Positions 11,898 through 64,000 of a DNA stretch of 64,000 nucleotides are shown piece after piece. Position 1 is the first letter of the stretch, and each line of letters opens with the position of its first letter. The translations under genes and the position numbers were made by a program. Below the pieces are notes generated by a model. That model ran no database searches. It worked only from the letters and a program-made list of their open reading frames with translations, and had not been told where the DNA came from. The stretch is from Escherichia coli. GTDB lineage: Bacteria > Pseudomonadota > Gammaproteobacteria > Enterobacterales > Enterobacteriaceae. The stretch lies in the NCBI RefSeq assembly GCF_017348835.2, contig NZ_CP071375.1; one strand, given 5' to 3'.

Positions 11898-13187
11898 TTA
11901 TTTGTCTGTTATATCCGCGTCTTCTGCGTCCAGCACCACTTCTTCAGGGCGCAGCACACTGATCAGTTTGAAAATCAAACTTAAGCCGATACCGACGATG
12001 GTCGCCAGCGCCATACCTTTCAACTCCGCCGCGCCGATGTTTACCTTCGCGCCACTGACGCCGATGATCAAAATCACGGAAGTCAGGATCAGGTTCTGTG
12101 CTTTGTTGTAATCCACTTTCGATTCGATCAAAACACGAATACCGGAAGCACCGATGACACCATAAAGCAGCAGCGAAACGCCGCCCATCACCGGCAATGG
12201 GATCATCTGGATAGCGGCAGCCAGTTTACCGACGCAGGAAAGCAGGATAGCGAAAATCGCCGCCCCGCCGATAACCCAAGTACTGTAAACACGGGTGATC
12301 GCCATCACGCCAATGTTTTCTCCGTAAGTGGTATTTGGCGTAGAGCCAAAGAAGCCGGAGATCACGGTCGACAGGCCGTTAGCAAACATCGAACGGTGCA
12401 AACCTGGATCGCGCAGCAGATCTTTTTTGACGATATTAGCCGTTACTACCAGGTGCCCTACGTGTTCGGCAATAACCACTAACGCCGCTGGCAGAATAGT
12501 CAGAATGGCAAACCACTCGAAGCGCGGCGTATAGAGGGTTGGCAGCGCAAACCAGTGAGCATTAATAATCGGCGTGGTATCGACAATTCCCATTGCGAAA
12601 GAGAGCGCGTACCCCACCAGCACGCCAATTAAAATCGGGATAATTGCCAGGAAACCACGGAACAGCACGGAACCTAAAACCGTGACCGCCAGGGTGGTAA
12701 TAGAGATGATGATGGTTTTGGAGTCTGGCGTTTGCCCTTCAGCCGGGAGTAAACCCGCCATACCGGCAGCTACGCCCGCCAGCTCCAGACCGATGACGGC
12801 AACGATTGCGCCCATTGCCGCAGGTGGAAACAGCACGTCCAGCCAGCCGGTCCCCGCTTTCTTCACGATAAAAGAAACCAGGCAGAACAGCACGCCGCAC
12901 ATAATAAAGCCGCCCAGCGCGACTTCATACCCTAACGGCAACAGTAACAATACCGGTGAAATAAAGGCAAAGCTGGAACCAAGATAAGCCGGAATTTTCC
13001 CTTTACAGATGAAGAGATACAGCAGCGTTCCAATACCGTTAAATAACAGTACAGTCGCCGGGTTAATATGAAATAAGACGGGCACCAGGACGGTTGCACC
13101 AAACATGGCGAACAAATGTTGCAAACTAAGCGGGATTGTCTGTAAAAGTGGCGGTCTTTCACTCACCCCGATAGCACGGCGCGTCAT
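11898..13187 (-). CDS. uraA: Uracil:proton symporter UraA (NCS2 family)
   Basis: Start chosen at [13 protein letters not shown]... (429 aa); polytopic membrane protein; synteny with upp. Confidence 0.9.
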
Positions 13188-13225
13188 AGTATTATCCTCT
13201 GTATTATGTGTTATAGGCGCTTTAC

Positions 13226-13258
13226 TCAAAAAAAAGCCGACTCTTAAAGTCGGCTTTA
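13226..13258 (-). terminator. Intercistronic hairpin / rho-independent terminator between upp and uraA
   Basis: Stem AAGCCGACT-CTTAA-AGTCGGCTT at 13233-13255, flanked by an A-run on the plus strand (a U-run on the minus-strand transcript). Confidence 0.6.
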
Positions 13259-13272
13259 ATTATTTTTATTCT

Positions 13273-13899
13273 TTATTTCGTACCAAAGATTTTGTCACCG
13301 GCATCGCCGAGGCCCGGAATAATGTATCCGTGCTCGTTCAGTCCCTGATCAATCGATGCGGTATACAGTTCGACGTCCGGGTGCGCTTTTTCCAGCGCAG
13401 CGATACCTTCTGGCGCAGCTACCAGCACCAGAACTTTGATGCTGCTGCAGCCCGCTTTTTTCAGCAGGTCGATGGTCGCGATAACGGAACCACCGGTTGC
13501 CAGCATTGGGTCAACGATCAGCGCCATACGCTCATCGATGTTAGAAACCAGTTTCTGGAAGTACGGTACCGGCTCCAGCGTTTCTTCATTACGGTACATA
13601 CCGACAACGCTGATGCGCGCGCTCGGAACGTTTTCCAGCACACCGTCCATCATACCAAGACCCGCACGCAGAATTGGCACAACGGTAATTTTCTTACCTT
13701 TGATCTGGTCGATTTCTACCGGGCCGTTCCAGCCTTCGATAGTTACTTTTTCCGTTTCGAGGTCGGCGGTCGCTTCGTAAGTCAGCAGGCTACCCACTTC
13801 GGAAGCGAGTTCGCGAAAGCGCTTGGTGCTGATATCTTGCTCACGCATCAGTCCCAACTTGTGTTTGACGAGTGGGTGTTTGACTTCCACGATCTTCAT
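13273..13899 (-). CDS. upp: Uracil phosphoribosyltransferase Upp
   Basis: Start at [14 protein letters not shown]... (208 aa); PRTase motifs. Confidence 0.9.
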
Positions 13900-14134
13900 A
13901 CTCTTTCTCCTTTGAGGGGCAGCCACAAAAAAAATCGACGGATTATACCTCCTTTCTTCAAGGCGGCAATATTATTTTCGTTGACTTTAGTCAAAATGAT
14001 AACGGTTTGAGATAAAGTTATTTTATATTCAAATGGTTATGAAAGAAGATTATTCCATCCGAAAACTAACCTTTGCCCTGGCACAAGTCTTCTTTCGCCG
14101 CGCGCCTGGGGAAAAGACGTGCAAAAAGGTTGTG

Positions 14135-56914: not shown

Positions 56915-57346
56915 TTAACGGGTGCGCGGGCACACTTCACCTTCGCCGAAGAAATAAGCGATTTCGCGAGCGGCAGATTCGACGGAGTCAGAGCCGTGGG
57001 TACCGTTTTCGGTCAGGCTGTCAGCGTAATCAGCGCGCAGAGTACCGGCCAGTGCGTTTGCCGGATTGGTCGCGCCCAGCAGATCGCGGTGACGCTGAAC
57101 GGCGTTTTCACCTTCCAGCACGGAAACCACGATCGGGCCAGAGGTCATGAATTCAACCAGACCATCAAAGAACGGTTTTCCATCGTGTTCAGCATAAAAG
57201 CCACGAGCCTGTTCAACGGTCAGGTGCAGCATTTTGGTGCCGACAATTTTGAACCCTGCAGCTTCAAAGCGCGCAAAGATATTACCAATGACGTTTTTTG
57301 CTACCGCGTTCGGTTTGATAATGGAAAAAGTACGTTCAATAGCCAT
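56915..57346 (-). CDS. ndk: Nucleoside diphosphate kinase
   Basis: 143-aa ORF ([15 protein letters not shown]...). Confidence 0.95.
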
Positions 57347-57486
57347 TTTTACCTCTGTAAATTGTTCTGTTGTTGTCTGTACCAGCGTACGAGATGGCGC
57401 GGATTATAATGAGCAACAGAGCCGTTGACTATTGATGAAGGTAACATTTTTTTAAAATAAAATGAGTTTTAGCAACAACTCGACTT

Positions 57487-58341
57487 TTATGGTGTTCTCA
57501 TCCCATAGCGATGACGTTGGCAATAAAGACAATTTTGCGCATTTTGCTGAAAAGTAAGAAAGGATTTTTGACAGGTTTTACAGACTTTGCGATTAGCATG
57601 AAGATTCACAATTTTTGCCGGTAGAATCGTCAATTCAACGGTCATTGCCTGATGAAAACAAACAGCAATACAATTTTGGCATCCGTTACACAAGGCATCA
57701 TTTATTTGTAAATGGCCTTCGTTAAGCGAAAAGACCTGTTGCTCGCAGGCCCGCCAGCATGCACCGCAAAGCTGACACTTTTGAGGATCCATCATCGGGC
57801 GAGCATCACTAATCTGGGGCCAAAAATAATGTAACCGACGTAATCCTGGTTGTATTTGTGTCATCTGAACATCCGCACGCTGCACATGGAACAAACGACG
57901 CCGGGAAACATTCACCTCACTGGTATGTGGAGATACCACAGACCAGCCTTCCTCGCCATATTGCCGTAAGCGTTCGTTTAACAGCAATAATGCGCGCTCC
58001 CATGCCTTCGCCTGACTCAGATCAATCGCGATCGCTGTGATCCCCTGCTCTTTATGCCATAGCAAAAGTTCTTCCAGCGTCGGCGCAATAGTGGTGAAAG
58101 GTGCGACCAGGGTGTGATTGCGAAAATAACGTAAAGGGGAATTAACGCCACGAATAGCCTCTTGCGGGCAAATAAACTGGCAAACCGCACACTCAATACA
58201 TTGTTCCGCGTCGACCGCTACGCCCTCTTCTGTCAGCGTTAGCGCCTGTGCCGGGCAAGCCTCGACACAGGCATGACATGTTGCAAAACGAAAGCGTTGG
58301 CGCGCGCATTCCGCGCCAATCGTTATGTTATGACTTAACAT
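57487..58341 (-). CDS. Ferredoxin-like 4Fe-4S protein (accessory electron-transfer subunit of the molybdoenzyme operon)
   Basis: 284-aa ORF with several Cys clusters (CHACVEACP, CIECAVCQFICP, CQLCGACWRAC, CNGCQNCIAVC); start/stop overlap with the upstream gene. Confidence 0.6.
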   Translation of the reverse strand: MLSHNITIGAECARQRFRFATCHACVEACPAQALTLTEEGVAVDAEQCIECAVCQFICPQEAIRGVNSPLRYFRNHTLVAPFTTIAPTLEELLLWHKEQGITAIAIDLSQAKAWERALLLLNERLRQYGEEGWSVVSPHTSEVNVSRRRLFHVQRADVQMTQIQPGLRRLHYFWPQISDARPMMDPQKCQLCGACWRACEQQVFSLNEGHLQINDALCNGCQNCIAVCFHQAMTVELTILPAKIVNLHANRKVCKTCQKSFLTFQQNAQNCLYCQRHRYGMRTP

Positions 58342-59162
58342 TAGCCGATACTAAAAAAGACAAAACGCAGCATAACTTCACTCCCCACTAGCATTACGCT
58401 ACCGAATAACGCCGCCGGGATATTCTTTTTACAACCACCGACAGCAAAGAACATCATCCCAATGACGGAAATTCCCCAGCTTAGTGTCAGTATGGGTTTT
58501 AACTGTCCCAGCATCGCTAATGGCGCATGTGGCAATGTGGCTATCTGCATCGCATTTGCCGTTAAATCCCCTATCCACAACGGCTGAACCAACAAGCGCA
58601 ACAGAACCAGGAGAGCGATCACCAATACGCATCCATTACGCAGGGCATCAATCTGCGGCAAAATTCCGCTAATACGAAACACGGCTACCAGCGCTGAACC
58701 GAGAATTCCCACTGTACCTAAGAACATAATCAGCGTGTTGTAATGCTGCCAGGTGATAATCGACGTATGGATGTAAACTTGCGCCATGCAGAAAACATCA
58801 ACAATCCCGACCACTGCCGCTAGCATAAGCAGGAGTTGCCAGCCGCCTTTGCGTAACATGACCAGTAATGTGGATAAACCCAATAGCGCCAGATACAGCG
58901 TACCAAAGATAATTTCCCGACTCAGCCATGAACTGGAAAAGTGACTTAGCGCATGCATCGCATTAAGTGGATAACCCAGGTGTAAGGTAGAAATCAGTAA
59001 CCCTACGGCCCCTGCCAAAAAAGCCAACAGTAATGGCGGCCGCATAACCGGGCGGGCGCTGGAGGTGATTAAAATATGACGATGAAGAAACGCCAGCCAC
59101 AGCGTCATACCGACCGATGCCTGTAACAACAGCGTAAAAGCCATTAACGGTAATTCATGCAT
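58341..59162 (-). CDS. DmsC-like membrane anchor subunit
   Basis: 273-aa polytopic membrane ORF overlapping neighbours at both ends (operon). Confidence 0.65.
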   Translation of the reverse strand: MHELPLMAFTLLLQASVGMTLWLAFLHRHILITSSARPVMRPPLLLAFLAGAVGLLISTLHLGYPLNAMHALSHFSSSWLSREIIFGTLYLALLGLSTLLVMLRKGGWQLLLMLAAVVGIVDVFCMAQVYIHTSIITWQHYNTLIMFLGTVGILGSALVAVFRISGILPQIDALRNGCVLVIALLVLLRLLVQPLWIGDLTANAMQIATLPHAPLAMLGQLKPILTLSWGISVIGMMFFAVGGCKKNIPAALFGSVMLVGSEVMLRFVFFSIG

Positions 59163-59784
59163 GATGTGACGCCTCCTTTTCCGCGCCCTGATGCGGTTTA
59201 ATCACCAGATTTGGCTGCGTAATCGACGAATCAGGTAAACCTTTCACATCACTGACATCGCCATACTTTTCACGCAACTCATCAATAGGGCCGAACTTAA
59301 TCGCCCCCAACGGGCACGTTGCCACGCAAATGGGTTGTTCTCCTTTAGCTTGCAGATCAATACAGAAATCGCATTTCGACATCTGCCCGGTCTGCTCATT
59401 CATTTGCGGTGCGCCGTAAGGACAGGACCATGCGCAGTAACCGCAACCGACGCACTTATCAGTATTCACGCGCACAATACCGTCTCCGGGACGCTTATGC
59501 ATCGCCATCGTCGGGCAATTTTTGGTACAGATCGGATCCGCGCAATGGTTACAGGAAACAGAAAGGGTATAAGCAAAGACATTATGACTCACACCGCCCT
59601 CTCCAGTGGCGATAAAGCCACCGCCGTTCACTTCATACACGCGGCGAAAACGTCGCCCAACCTCAAGGTTGTTTTTGTCTTTACAGGCCACCTGACACGC
59701 TTTACAGCCAGAACAACGCGAAGAGTCAATAAAGAACCCTAATTGTTTGTCGCTGACAGATGCAAATTCTTTAAATTGGCTCAT
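59155..59784 (-). CDS. DmsB-like 4Fe-4S iron-sulfur subunit
   Basis: 209-aa ORF with four ferredoxin-type Cys clusters. Confidence 0.75.
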   Translation of the reverse strand: MSQFKEFASVSDKQLGFFIDSSRCSGCKACQVACKDKNNLEVGRRFRRVYEVNGGGFIATGEGGVSHNVFAYTLSVSCNHCADPICTKNCPTMAMHKRPGDGIVRVNTDKCVGCGYCAWSCPYGAPQMNEQTGQMSKCDFCIDLQAKGEQPICVATCPLGAIKFGPIDELREKYGDVSDVKGLPDSSITQPNLVIKPHQGAEKEASHHA

Positions 59785-62162
59785 GCTTTCTCAACCTCCA
59801 CCAGCATTGTTTGATGTGAATTCCCTTTCGCCAGCGCCGTAATGCGGGTCGAACTCAGTACATTGGCGCAGCCTCCGCGATCAATACCTTGTGCATCCGG
59901 TTGCCACCATGCCCCCGCCTGCATAGCAACTACGCCAGGGATGATACGGGGGGTTATTTCCACCGGGATAATGCTCACACCACGATCGTTATAAATTTTT
60001 ACGCTATCTCCTTCGACAATCCCGCGCTGTTTTGCATCTTGCGGATTCAGCCAGAGTTTTTGCGTCTGAACTTCTTGCAGCCACGGGTTAGCATACTGGG
60101 TGGAATTAGCACGGTTTTTCCCTTTCCAGGTGATGAGCTGCAACGGGTATTTCGCCGTCAGTTTATCTTCTGGCCCTTCAAAGGCAGGGACATAGTGCGA
60201 AAGCGCGGGAATTTCTGGATCTTGCATATCAAAAAGACGCTTAGAGAAGATCTCAATTTTGCCGGAAGGCGTCGGGAAAGGATTATTCTGCGGATCGCGA
60301 ATATTTGCTTCGAAAGCGATGTGCGGCGCGCTTTTGAAAAGATGTCGACGTGTTTTTTGCAGGGTCGCGAAGTCCGGCAAATTTTCATCCGGCATCGCCA
60401 GACGAGTTTGCTCCCAGATATGCTCGATCCATTGCTTCTCATCACGTCCTTGACTGAACTCGGCTTCGACACCCAGTTTTTTCGCCACGTCACGCAACCA
60501 GTCATAATCGGTGCGACGTTCAAACTCCGGCTCAATCAGTTTTTCTGACAGAATGAGATAGCTCGCCGTTCCCCATGTTTCGCCGATATTCCAGCGTTCC
60601 ATAAAGCTGGTTTCCGGCAGCAACACATCGGCATATTTCGCGCTCGGAGTCATGAACAGATCGCTGAGTACGATGAATTCTATTTTAGATTCGTCTTCAA
60701 GGAGCTTCGCGGCCTGGTGGACGTCCGGGTTCTGGTTCGCCAGATAATTACCTGCCAGTGAGAACAGCAGGCGGATATTACTGTCGAGTTTATCGACACC
60801 TTTAAGCCCATCTTGTGGCGTAACTTTAGAAGCATCATCCGCCGCCTGCATCCAGTTCATAATCGAGATTTTCGCTTGTACCGGATTTTCTGGCATATCT
60901 GGTCCAACGCAGAATTTACGATTAGAACTACCGCCATAACCTGCCGCCCAGCCACCTTTGATGCCGACGTTACCGGTAATCGAGGCCAGTAAAGTTGAAC
61001 CTCGGGCGGTGCGTTCGCCGCAAATATGTCGCTGCGGTCCCCATCCCTGAATCAACGCTGCGGGTTTCGTGTTGGCGTAATCACGGGCCAGTTGACGAAT
61101 AGTTTGCGCTGGAACGTGGGTAATTTTTTCTGCCCATTCCGGCGTTTTGTGTATCCCATCTTTTGCGCCAAAAAGGTAGGCAACCAACGATTCGTTGGCT
61201 GGTACGCCTTCCGGCATGGAGTTTTCATCAAAACCGAGAGTATATGTGTCGATAAATGTCTTATCATGGAGATTCTCGCTGATAATGACGTACATCATCG
61301 CGTCCATCAACGCATTGTCCGTGGTCGGCAACAGCGGGATCCACTGATCGGCAAGTGAAGATACGGTGTCGGAATAGCGCGGATCCACCACGATAAAACG
61401 TGTACCGTTTTGCTTCATTTTTTGAAAATAGTAATTGGTGTGACCGAATATGGTTTCCGTTGGGTTATGCCCCCAGAGAATCACCAGTTTGGTATCCAGA
61501 AGAGTATCCATCGAGTTACCGCTCGCGGCCACGCCATACGTGTAAGGCGTGGCCGCCGCAGTATTACCCAGACTAACTGAGTGATAATATTCAAGATAAC
61601 CACCGGTTAAATTTAACAGCCGACGCGCCATCGCATCGCCAGAAAATGTTCCACCAGAAACAGCCGTCCCGACATGGACATAACGTGAAGCCGGGCCATA
61701 TTGTTGCGTGATCCTTTTCAGGTTATCGGCAATTAAGGTCGTCGCCTCATCCCATGAAATACGCTCAAATTTCCCCTCGCCCCGTTTACCGACCCGTTTC
61801 ATCGGATATTTCAGGCGGTCTGGATGATAAACAAATTTACGATAGCCGCGACCACGAACACAGGCGCGCATAATCGGCATTTGTGGATCCAATTCGTTAT
61901 CGGGAAGCGTGGTAATTTGCGTCACCACACCGTCGCACATATGCGCCCGAATATCGCACTTACCACCGCAGTCAAATGTGCTACAGGTGGGCACGACTTT
62001 ATCAGCTACTGGAGCTGTAACTTCTGGCGACGCATCTGGGGATTGCGCCTTTGCGGTAGAAGAAATAAAAGGCAAAGTGATAAGCGCGGAAGTCGCTTGT
62101 AAAAAACTACGTCGTGATACTTGCGGAAATGTAATGCGTTCCTTTTCGTCTGGCGTATCCAT
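59781..62162 (-). CDS. DMSO-reductase-family molybdopterin oxidoreductase catalytic subunit (DmsA/YnfE-like), Tat-exported
   Basis: 793-aa ORF with twin-arginine signal (SRRSFLQA) and an N-terminal Cys cluster (CSTFDCGGKC). Confidence 0.75.
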   Translation of the reverse strand: MDTPDEKERITFPQVSRRSFLQATSALITLPFISSTAKAQSPDASPEVTAPVADKVVPTCSTFDCGGKCDIRAHMCDGVVTQITTLPDNELDPQMPIMRACVRGRGYRKFVYHPDRLKYPMKRVGKRGEGKFERISWDEATTLIADNLKRITQQYGPASRYVHVGTAVSGGTFSGDAMARRLLNLTGGYLEYYHSVSLGNTAAATPYTYGVAASGNSMDTLLDTKLVILWGHNPTETIFGHTNYYFQKMKQNGTRFIVVDPRYSDTVSSLADQWIPLLPTTDNALMDAMMYVIISENLHDKTFIDTYTLGFDENSMPEGVPANESLVAYLFGAKDGIHKTPEWAEKITHVPAQTIRQLARDYANTKPAALIQGWGPQRHICGERTARGSTLLASITGNVGIKGGWAAGYGGSSNRKFCVGPDMPENPVQAKISIMNWMQAADDASKVTPQDGLKGVDKLDSNIRLLFSLAGNYLANQNPDVHQAAKLLEDESKIEFIVLSDLFMTPSAKYADVLLPETSFMERWNIGETWGTASYLILSEKLIEPEFERRTDYDWLRDVAKKLGVEAEFSQGRDEKQWIEHIWEQTRLAMPDENLPDFATLQKTRRHLFKSAPHIAFEANIRDPQNNPFPTPSGKIEIFSKRLFDMQDPEIPALSHYVPAFEGPEDKLTAKYPLQLITWKGKNRANSTQYANPWLQEVQTQKLWLNPQDAKQRGIVEGDSVKIYNDRGVSIIPVEITPRIIPGVVAMQAGAWWQPDAQGIDRGGCANVLSSTRITALAKGNSHQTMLVEVEKA

Positions 62163-62325
62163 CTTGCGTTCCCGAAAATGAAAAAATAAATATTCACGTA
62201 TTTATTCGAGAACAATGCTGATAACAATCAAATAATTAGTCGTTTAAAAAAACGTGAGATTATTAAATTATTAATGTATTCCAAATATAAATGCCATAAT
62301 TAGATTAATAAATATTTTGTATATT

Positions 62326-64000
62326 TCACTGAAATGAAAAATATACTGTCGCGATTTGCCCCACCTCATCCATCACCAGCAATTGATAATCGCCTTTATC
62401 CATCAAATGCAGGGTCACGTTGCGCCCGCGTTCAGTTAACGGTTCGCCATTCAGAAACCACCAGCGTTCACCTGCTCCTCCACTTGATTGCACCGGCAAA
62501 GTCGCTTCTGCTGCGCCCGGTAAACGTTTAATAATCGCGCCATCGCGAACGCCTGTCAGCTGCAGCGGGAGTTGTGCATGGTGACCGTATGGCGGGCAAA
62601 TTGTCGAGGCCGGTGGTAAGCGCACAGCGCGACGTTCTGATGCGGGCAACCAGGGTTCCAGCGGTAGCGGCCAGACATTTATCATTTCTTGTCGCGCTTG
62701 CGGGCAATCAGCGGCAACACGTTTGCCATTTTCATCCAGCCAGATGGGGAAACGAATGCCATTAATGCCTTCCTGCTCCGGCAGTAATAGAGTTGGCGGC
62801 TGACTCCTGTCCAGCAGCCAGGTTGCCAGGCGGCGGCGACAGTTACCGTCACCTTCCGGCAAAGACTGTCCGCCCGGCCAGCAGATAACGCCACGAGTGA
62901 CTGAGTTCGGGCGCGGGTCTTCCGGCAGATTAGCACTGCGCGACAGTAAGATATTATTGACCTGATTCAACAATGGTACGGCGCTGGCAAAACCAAACTG
63001 ACCAACAACGGGCGTGCCGTCCGGTCTGCCAGTCCAGATCCCAATGACATAGCGAGCGTTAACCCCAATCGCCCAGGCGTCACGATAGCCATAGCTGGTG
63101 CCCGTTTTCCATGCCAGTGGGGCGACGCGCGGCAAGGCACCATCCGGCAAGGGTTGCGCTTCATCAGCCATAATCCGGCGAATGATCCACGCAGCCCCCG
63201 ACGACATTAAAGGCCGTTCAAGCAGCGGATCGTCAGGCTGTAAGCGCAATTTGCCTGCCTTGCCGTGGCGAGCAAACGCGGTATACGCTGCCGCCATATC
63301 TTCCAGTTTTGCACCAGCGCCGCCGAGAATGAGCGAAAGATTCGGCGCCGCACCGTTGGGCAAATATAACGGCAATCCAACATTGCGTAACTTTGCCGCA
63401 AACCGTTTCGGTCCATAGGCTTCCAGTACCTGCACAGCAGGTAAATTCAGCGAGCGCACCAGCGCCTCGCTCATGCTGATCGGGCCATGAAAACCGCTAT
63501 CAAAGTTACCTGGTCGATAATCACCGGTGCGCCGGGGGACGTCTTGCAGCAGTGATGCCGGGTGGATCAAGCCTTCATCCAGCGCCAGACCATAAACAAA
63601 CGGTTTGAGCACCGATCCTGGCGATCGGATCGCATTGACCATATCAACATGACCAAAGCGTGAATCATCGTTGAGATCTACCGATCCCACCCAGCCGCGA
63701 ACACGCATATCGGTATGATCAACCACGATCATCGCCAGTGAGCTGCGCGGCGGCAATCGTCCTTTCCAGTTTTGCGCCAGTTCTTCCAGACGTCGCTGAA
63801 GCCCGGCATCCAGCGTAGTAACGATTTTGTCGCTTTTACTTTTACCGAGCATCATGCGCGAAAACAGCGGTGCCAGTTGCGGCATTTGTCGGGGTGCCAG
63901 CCAGATGGGTTCTTCCCTTGACTCTTTTACCTGCTCACGGGACCACACACCTTGCACGGCCATCCGTTCGAGCACTTTATTACGCGCGGCTTCGGCACGC
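62326..64000 (-). CDS. pbpC: Penicillin-binding protein 1C (PbpC), C-terminal part; 5' end beyond window
   Basis: Open frame to the window edge; transpeptidase-like and C-terminal domain sequence; position after ndk and the molybdoenzyme operon. Confidence 0.8.
   Translation of the reverse strand, partial: RAEAARNKVLERMAVQGVWSREQVKESREEPIWLAPRQMPQLAPLFSRMMLGKSKSDKIVTTLDAGLQRRLEELAQNWKGRLPPRSSLAMIVVDHTDMRVRGWVGSVDLNDDSRFGHVDMVNAIRSPGSVLKPFVYGLALDEGLIHPASLLQDVPRRTGDYRPGNFDSGFHGPISMSEALVRSLNLPAVQVLEAYGPKRFAAKLRNVGLPLYLPNGAAPNLSLILGGAGAKLEDMAAAYTAFARHGKAGKLRLQPDDPLLERPLMSSGAAWIIRRIMADEAQPLPDGALPRVAPLAWKTGTSYGYRDAWAIGVNARYVIGIWTGRPDGTPVVGQFGFASAVPLLNQVNNILLSRSANLPEDPRPNSVTRGVICWPGGQSLPEGDGNCRRRLATWLLDRSQPPTLLLPEQEGINGIRFPIWLDENGKRVAADCPQARQEMINVWPLPLEPWLPASERRAVRLPPASTICPPYGHHAQLPLQLTGVRDGAIIKRLPGAAEATLPVQSSGGAGERWWFLNGEPLTERGRNVTLHLMDKGDYQLLVMDEVGQIATVYFSFQ

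Follow-up and report, generated by a model that had tools for sequence, protein, structure and literature searches.

An intact four-gene operon for a DmsABC-like, periplasm-facing molybdenum reductase between ndk and pbpC of Escherichia coli

A stretch of 64,000 nt of Escherichia coli DNA (NCBI RefSeq assembly GCF_017348835.2, contig NZ_CP071375.1), referred to as the window and used for all positions below, carries four consecutive minus-strand open reading frames (ORFs) between ndk and pbpC, abbreviated here as A, B, C and D. They form a real and intact operon of four genes for a membrane-bound, periplasm-facing molybdenum reductase. With moderate confidence, the system is read as an FNR-induced, menaquinol-oxidising DmsABC-like reductase, orthologous to the psr1 operon of Salmonella, whose acceptor is neither dimethyl sulfoxide (DMSO) nor methionine sulfoxide and whose fourth protein, D, is a cytoplasmic factor acting before export. 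The operon as such is already known and ordinary. As a system it offers nothing new, because it is annotated in RefSeq, conserved across Enterobacteriaceae and has been studied in Salmonella.

An initial annotation, made from the sequence alone, had placed a four-gene operon at 57487–62162, and four minus-strand ORFs were located at exactly these coordinates. Gene A (59781–62162) encodes the catalytic subunit (793 aa, 88.3 kDa), which binds molybdenum bis(pyranopterin guanine dinucleotide) (Mo-bisPGD) and belongs to the DmsA/YnfE subfamily and, within it, to the Psr1A/STM2530 clade. Gene B (59155–59784) encodes a four-cluster Fe-S electron-transfer subunit (209 aa) without its own signal peptide, and gene C (58341–59162) a membrane anchor of the DmsC family (273 aa). 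Gene D (57487–58341) encodes a soluble protein (284 aa) with two 2x[4Fe-4S] ferredoxin domains, a middle domain and a C-terminal cysteine motif. The junction sequences were read directly: A and B overlap by 4 nt (ATGA), B and C by 8 nt (ATGCATGA) and C and D by 1 nt (TAATG). Coupling of all genes by start/stop overlaps, as previously proposed, was thus seen at every junction. In RefSeq, A and B are named "DMSO/selenate family reductase complex A subunit" and "DMSO/selenate family reductase complex B subunit", C "dimethyl sulfoxide reductase anchor subunit family protein" and D "4Fe-4S dicluster domain-containing protein".

Protein A matched TIGR02166 (dmsA_ynfE) over residues 15–793 with 1127.4 bits (cut-off 777.7) and carries the features of this subfamily, namely a twin-arginine translocation (Tat) signal, an N-terminal cysteine group for the FS0 cluster, here in a spacing variant, and a molybdenum-ligand serine. 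The Tat signal peptide, read from the translation, spans residues 1–39 (62046–62162, minus strand) and comprises the motif SRRSFLQ (beginning S16-R-R-S-F-L-Q), a hydrophobic region and the cleavage motif AKA (A37-K-A39). In the alignment, the arginine pair was invariant in A orthologues as well as in DmsA, YnfE and YnfF. Subfamily match and twin-arginine signal together confirm the earlier description of a Tat-exported catalytic subunit of 793 aa. The FS0 [4Fe-4S] motif was found as C60-x4-C65-x3-C69-x31-C101 (61860–61985, minus strand). Its first part, CSTFDCGGKC (C-x4-C-x3-C), was invariant in 12/12 clade members from E. coli to Proteus, whereas the spacing in DmsA, YnfE and YnfF is C-x3-C-x3-C. 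Ser197 (codon at 61572–61574, minus strand) occupies an invariant alignment column, corresponds in the alignment to Ser147 of DMSO reductase from Rhodobacter (1dms numbering) and is the predicted molybdenum ligand.

Protein A scored below the cut-offs of the models for E. coli-type DmsA (NF011566, 708.3 bits, cut-off 1600), YnfE (NF041885, 667.3 bits, cut-off 1675) and YnfF (NF041884, 692.1 bits, cut-off 1650). Identity to the K-12 paralogues was 44% (DmsA), 41–42% (YnfE) and 43% (YnfF), and identity to the Salmonella and Citrobacter orthologues 83–89%. The phylogenetic placement of A that had been recommended as a check was performed by neighbour joining, and the A clade (E. coli to Proteus, at least 68% identity) was sister to DmsA/YnfE/YnfF (41–44% identity). 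The genes are not standard ynfEFGH or dmsABC paralogues with known substrate, a result that would have refuted the initial annotation. At the position of DorA Tyr114, a residue that tunes the preference for S-oxides versus N-oxides, the alignment showed Tyr in DmsA, YnfE and YnfF and Val in the A clade (Asn in one member). The aligned Val would agree with the absent DMSO activity reported for the Salmonella enzyme.

The two remaining subunits of the reductase were assigned in the same manner. Protein B matched TIGR02951 (DMSO_dmsB) with 265.8 bits (cut-off 214.1) and is 55% identical to DmsB; its 16 cysteines are arranged in four groups, all of them invariant with DmsB and YnfG. Protein C matched PF04976 (DmsC) with 83.1 bits (cut-off 22.3) over profile positions 5–273 of 275, at an identity to DmsC and YnfH of only 24–25%. 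His65 and Glu87 of DmsC, implicated in menaquinol binding, are kept in C as H61 and E83 in invariant columns. Anchors of the DmsC type are not known to carry haem. The model matches of A, B and C all lie far outside the range of chance. A 209-aa four-cluster Fe-S subunit and a 273-aa membrane anchor had both been predicted, and the 16 cysteines and TIGR02951 score of B and the end-to-end PF04976 match of C agree with this.

Compared with known systems of E. coli, the operon resembles dmsABC in the three-subunit architecture with Tat-exported A, serine molybdenum ligand, four-cluster B, haem-free anchor with conserved His65 and Glu87, and an FNR-type promoter. It differs from DmsABC in the sequence of A (identity as given above), the C-x4-C spacing at FS0, Val at the DorA Tyr114 position, the presence of a fourth gene, and in that the Salmonella orthologue supports no DMSO or methionine sulfoxide respiration. 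With YnfEFGH-DmsD (selenate/tellurate reductase) it shares the TIGR02166 subfamily and an accessory gene placed after the anchor gene. However, identity to this system is 41–43%, and its accessory protein is the TorD-family chaperone DmsD, in place of which the Fe-S protein D is found here.

Judged by locus, gene order and FS0 motif, the operon is the E. coli orthologue of Salmonella STM2530–STM2527 (STM14_3103–3100; "psr1"). Published work on S. Typhimurium counts STM2530–STM2527 among three putative dmsABC operons and notes its fourth gene (bioRxiv 10.1101/2022.11.29.517730). Sequences were compared with the loci of S. enterica subsp. arizonae and diarizonae, from which all Salmonella identities given below were taken; the match to the S. 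Typhimurium operon itself rests on the locus descriptions in the papers. The comparison of the Salmonella ndk-pbpC region, likewise recommended at the outset, showed all four genes at this locus in unchanged order, together with the C-x4-C-x3-C FS0 motif and an upstream FNR box.

A candidate FNR box (TTGATtgttATCAg, 62218–62231, minus strand) matches TTGAT-N4-ATCAA at 9/10 positions, begins 69 bp before the start codon (ATG) of gene A and is centred about 62 bp upstream of it. Boxes with 0–2 mismatches (0–1 in ten loci) were present in 11 of 12 orthologous loci of other genera, mostly at 64–69 bp from the likely start codon, and perfect palindromes were found in five loci (Salmonella, both subspecies, Enterobacter, Proteus and one metagenomic locus). 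For the Salmonella orthologue, activation by FNR is reported to be among the strongest of all loci (PMC12636705), and the conserved box suggests that the E. coli operon is probably controlled by FNR as well. Generic promoter and terminator scans returned no more sites than shuffled sequence; the FNR box stands out from these scans because it is conserved. An Rfam search for a riboswitch or other RNA element gave no match at E ≤ 1. In one Proteus locus (L014), the ABCD genes adjoin a divergent gene for a Crp/FNR-family regulator (2770–3528 of that locus), and a perfect FNR palindrome starts 80 bp upstream of A.

For the function of the enzyme, published experiments come from Salmonella. In one study STM2530 did not support DMSO-dependent anaerobic growth, and in a second study growth on DMSO or methionine sulfoxide was unaffected by deletion of STM2530. 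The initial annotation had left the substrate undefined among DMSO, trimethylamine N-oxide, selenate or another oxyanion or S-/N-oxide, and with A below the DmsA, YnfE and YnfF cut-offs and the Salmonella orthologue lacking a DMSO or methionine sulfoxide phenotype, this view still holds. For E. coli O157:H7, an 88-kDa protein named "DmsA_YnfE" was reported in a rumen-fluid proteome (PMC3936929). This is a possible but unconfirmed match to A of the window, with a predicted mass of 88.3 kDa for A versus about 90 kDa for DmsA, YnfE and YnfF.

The following mechanism is proposed. Under anaerobiosis, FNR would activate the operon. Protein A would take up Mo-bisPGD (with Ser197 as ligand) and FS0 in the cytoplasm and bind B, and folded A would then carry B with its four [4Fe-4S] clusters through the Tat system. 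Protein C would anchor A and B and oxidise menaquinol at the site with the DmsC His/Glu residues, so that electrons would pass from menaquinol via the four clusters of B and FS0 to molybdenum. There, an oxo-transfer substrate other than DMSO or methionine sulfoxide would be reduced. Protein D would stay in the cytoplasm and act on the precursor in a NapF-like manner, e.g. by cluster delivery or reductive conditioning.

Protein D contains cysteine motifs in ferredoxin domain 1 (residues 12/22/25/29 and 48/51/54/58), in ferredoxin domain 2 (189/192/195/199 and 218/221/224/228) and in a C-terminal CxxC...CxxCxxH element (residues 254–277). All of its 20 cysteines, making up four [4Fe-4S] motifs and the C-terminal C-x2-C ... 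C-x2-C-x2-H, were invariant in 18 homologues. Neither a signal peptide nor a membrane or hydrophobic segment was found in D. The family search of D matched solely generic 4Fe-4S (Fer4-type) models, and no Pfam match was obtained for the middle domain (approximately residues 68–180) or the C-terminal part. The AlphaFold model of D is confident (predicted local distance difference test score 86.9). In a search of the PDB with D, no sequence spanned the whole protein, and the ferredoxin modules alone were matched.

A search of 1.84 billion representative sequences with D yielded 124 hits at E ≤ 1e-10, of which a few dozen were near full-length. Named homologues were found in Escherichia, Citrobacter, Enterobacter, Cronobacter, Erwinia, Proteus, Providencia, Morganella and Pectobacterium/Symbiopectobacterium, and further in Uliginosibacterium, Bacillus and Brevibacillus; no Pasteurellaceae names occurred among them. 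Generic names were used throughout. Genome contigs were additionally searched with a profile from a narrower D alignment, which gave 10 loci. In every locus long enough to show neighbours, the D homologue adjoins a Mo-bisPGD enzyme. The order A-B-C-D was found at three different chromosomal locations in Enterobacterales, and in one locus (L007) it is followed by a TorD-like chaperone gene. In Brevibacillus, D precedes genes for a 691-aa molybdenum enzyme without Tat motif and an Fe-S subunit, and no anchor gene is present. In three independent contigs, D was grouped with a radical S-adenosylmethionine (SAM) gene and a TorD-like gene upstream of a molybdenum enzyme, an Fe-S subunit and a DmsC-like anchor. 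These six-gene clusters extend over 5750–12728 (L013), 3002–9935 (L025) and 7001–14047 (L026) of their contigs, one of which is from Candidatus Symbiopectobacterium. They encode a radical-SAM protein of ~440 aa, a Mo-bisPGD enzyme of ~860 aa and an Fe-S subunit of 180 aa; the ~860-aa enzyme of L013, the one compared, has a C-x3-C FS0 motif and is ~30–33% identical to A. The family of D is uncharacterised and sometimes grouped with TorD-like chaperone and radical-SAM genes. The initial annotation had correctly recognised D as an extra poly-ferredoxin-like protein of 284 aa. Its view of this protein as unusual for a DmsABC-type system has to be revised, since D is a constant partner of the A clade and no oddity of the strain.

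Two assignments of D to known families were rejected. It is not a chaperone of the TorD/DmsD/NarJ type, as it gave no match to PF02613. A separate PF02613 gene stands beside the D homologue in L007, L013, L025 and L026; D is therefore not merely a replacement of TorD, because both coexist in the locus with A-B-C-D (L007). Nor is D a member of the NapF family: BLASTP aligned short cysteine-motif segments only, and hhalign aligned 47 columns only, corresponding to one ferredoxin half-domain (probability 95%). NapF nevertheless provides the best functional analogy, being a cytoplasmic protein with several [4Fe-4S] clusters whose gene accompanies that of a Tat-exported Mo-bisPGD enzyme, although it comprises 164 aa versus 284 aa in D and lacks the middle domain and the C-terminal Cys4 motif. 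NapF is needed for the maturation of NapA. A NapF-like gene, dmsE, is also part of dmsABCDE of H. influenzae (PMC8340005), and its product is likened to D by its description.

From this genomic analysis, D is most likely a cytoplasmic protein that helps to mature the A/B precursor, or to condition its redox state, before export. A role in maturation is suggested because the genes of distant D homologues lie together with those of a chaperone and a radical-SAM protein, because a haem-free anchor gives no electron path to a cytoplasmic subunit, and because A, B and C already constitute a complete wire. Several points weigh against the overall reading. The role of D is deduced from genomic context alone, its resemblance to NapF is limited to one ferredoxin half-domain, and its translational coupling to C within the A-B-C-D order would also suit a stoichiometric subunit. 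The Tyr-to-Val difference in A was read from a sequence alignment, no structure being at hand, the searched literature holds no experiment on the E. coli genes, and PMC12636705 reports a different, molybdenum-cofactor-independent chemistry for the A clade.

The alternative that survives best, although unlikely, is that D is a true fourth redox subunit, either co-exported with A and B or docked on the cytoplasmic face of C, where it would link a cytoplasmic donor or acceptor. Besides the 1-nt overlap with C and the A-B-C-D order, which is fixed across Enterobacterales, this would be in line with the fast evolution of C and D compared to A and B between E. coli and Salmonella (51%/40% versus 84%/86% identity), a pattern that might stem from co-evolution of the two. 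The Brevibacillus D homologue, encoded beside a molybdenum enzyme with neither anchor gene nor Tat motif, could likewise be a direct redox partner. However, a haem-free anchor of the DmsC type offers no electron route across the membrane to a cytoplasmic D, the wire from quinol to molybdenum is complete with A, B and C, and in the three contigs with six-gene clusters D is placed with the chaperone and radical-SAM genes upstream of the structural genes. A cytoplasmic factor acting before export is therefore the preferred role of D. Two more far-reaching possibilities are regarded as rather doubtful: that D founds an undescribed family of cytoplasmic Fe-S maturases or conditioning factors for DmsABC-type enzymes, ranging from Enterobacterales to Bacillus, or that the clade performs molybdenum-cofactor-independent chemistry at FS0, with D supplying or tuning low-potential electrons.

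A different chemistry was proposed in a Research Square preprint of October 2025 (PMC12636705), in which the Salmonella operon is renamed psr1. Psr1 and two other DmsA paralogues are claimed there to be periplasmic assimilatory sulfate reductases that reduce sulfate at FS0, independently of the molybdenum cofactor, and the Psr1A clade is defined by a C-x4-C-x3-C FS0 motif, which A of the window carries. A Salmonella mutant lacking all four dmsA paralogues had lost the benzyl-viologen:sulfate activity of membranes, and when sulfate was the only source of sulfur, growth of STM14_3103 mutants was poor (PMC12636705). The preprint is not peer reviewed, and its mechanistic work (serine mutant, moa deletion and electron paramagnetic resonance) was done on Psr3, which is of the YnfE type, and not on Psr1 (PMC12636705). 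Furthermore, E. coli K-12 assimilates sulfate without the operon. The redox potentials of sulfate/sulfite and menaquinone are about -516 mV and -74 mV, respectively. By such textbook potentials, quinol could reduce unactivated sulfate only in a strongly endergonic reaction, which is why the known sulfate pathways proceed via adenosine 5'-phosphosulfate. From E. coli to Proteus, strict conservation extends over the molybdenum-ligand serine and both pterin-binding domains, and the ratio of nonsynonymous to synonymous substitution rates (dN/dS) of A is ~0.05; with ligand and catalytic subunit so conserved, a dispensable molybdenum site is hard to accept. Molybdenum-independent sulfate reduction by psr1 is unproven, and such a function of the ABC complex is considered improbable. 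Preference is given to a reductase that uses its molybdenum site.

The distribution of the operon was determined in complete E. coli genomes. The 4.7-kb operon was present in 380 of 5426 genomes, in single copy and on the chromosome. At least 80% of the query was covered in 379 of the 380 carriers, with four intact ORFs and no pseudogene flags. The listed carriers are mostly O157:H7 or O55:H7 strains, including EDL933 and Xuzhou21, with a few from pig, mink and poultry. Between E. coli and Salmonella, identities were 84% for A, 86–87% for B, 51% for C and 39–40% for D, compared to 94% for ndk and 80% for pbpC. C and D have thus diverged far more than A, B and the flanking genes, and co-evolution of C and D is a possibility. 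Within Escherichia, dN/dS was 0.05–0.08 for A, ~0–0.06 for B and 0.12–0.17 for C and D; therefore, all four genes appear to be under purifying selection, with C and D more loosely constrained. That the E. coli operon is a decaying remnant without current function is highly improbable: although it is missing from ~93% of complete genomes, strain ZF8-1 keeps a mere fragment beside IS1, and the orthologues of S. Typhi and Paratyphi A are frameshifted (published), the intact ORFs of the 379 genomes, the low dN/dS (0.05–0.17), the conservation of all ligand residues and the 88-kDa O157:H7 protein with the mass of A, whose identity is unverified (PMC3936929), speak against it.

The gene order pbpC-A-B-C-D-ndk was also found in Citrobacter freundii, S. 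enterica subsp. arizonae and diarizonae, Enterobacter, Lelliottia, Huaxiibacter, Pseudocitrobacter and cryptic Escherichia species. The synteny common to these genera indicates that the ancestral Enterobacteriaceae already had the operon and that most E. coli lineages have lost it by deletion. This synteny argues against an acquisition after the split of Salmonella and Escherichia, as suggested previously (bioRxiv 10.1101/2022.11.29.517730). In Pseudocitrobacter faecalis (locus L017, ~4155–5537), tblastn with one high-scoring segment pair allowed matched residues 332–792 of A only, while the matches to B, C, D, ndk and pbpC extended over their full length; the partial A may represent a frameshift or a split match. 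In E. coli ZF8-1 (NZ_CP178597.1, 1271254–1272428), ~9% of the operon is left, consisting of part of D beside an IS1A transposase gene, and represents an independent route of operon loss associated with an insertion sequence (IS).

The operon is flanked by ndk (56915–57346) and pbpC (stop at 62326). In K-12, as stated in the initial annotation, the operon does not belong to the gene order at this locus, and a spacer of 148 bp alone separates ndk and pbpC. This spacer aligns with the window up to ~57478 and rejoins it on the pbpC side at ~62330, so that the segment missing in K-12 and ~93% of complete E. coli genomes corresponds to ~57479–62329. The ends of this segment were inspected for scars of mobile elements, and no flanking direct repeats, IS elements or tRNA genes were found there. 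The G+C content of the operon is ~0.50, the same as that of the genome, and the intergenic flanks alone are AT-rich. An origin from a mobile element was rejected on account of the missing repeats, IS and tRNA genes, the genome-like G+C content and the synteny in six other genera. An imperfect direct repeat of 17 nt (TTCCCGAAAATGAAAAA, 62169–62185, and TTCACTGAAATGAAAAA, 62325–62341; 82%) brackets the AT-rich region of 163 bp that separates the stop codon of pbpC from the start codon of A, and its occurrence by chance is plausible. No terminator-like site was found between the D stop and ndk (57347–57486). A sigma-70-like site of ndk (TAGTCA-17-TATAAT, 57431–57403) lies in sequence common to K-12, and anaerobic read-through into ndk is possible in carriers of the operon.

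O157:H7 and its relatives hold a respiratory-type molybdoenzyme that is absent in K-12, and standard E. coli knowledge is therefore silent on this operon. For the Salmonella orthologue, links to colonisation of the gut and to resistance to oxidative stress have been reported, and its proposed chemistry is contested. Identification of the real substrate would fill a gap in the picture of how enteric pathogens live anaerobically in the gut, with a missing electron acceptor or a repair function, and D could reveal how Fe-S and molybdenum cofactors are inserted, or held in the reduced state, ahead of Tat export.

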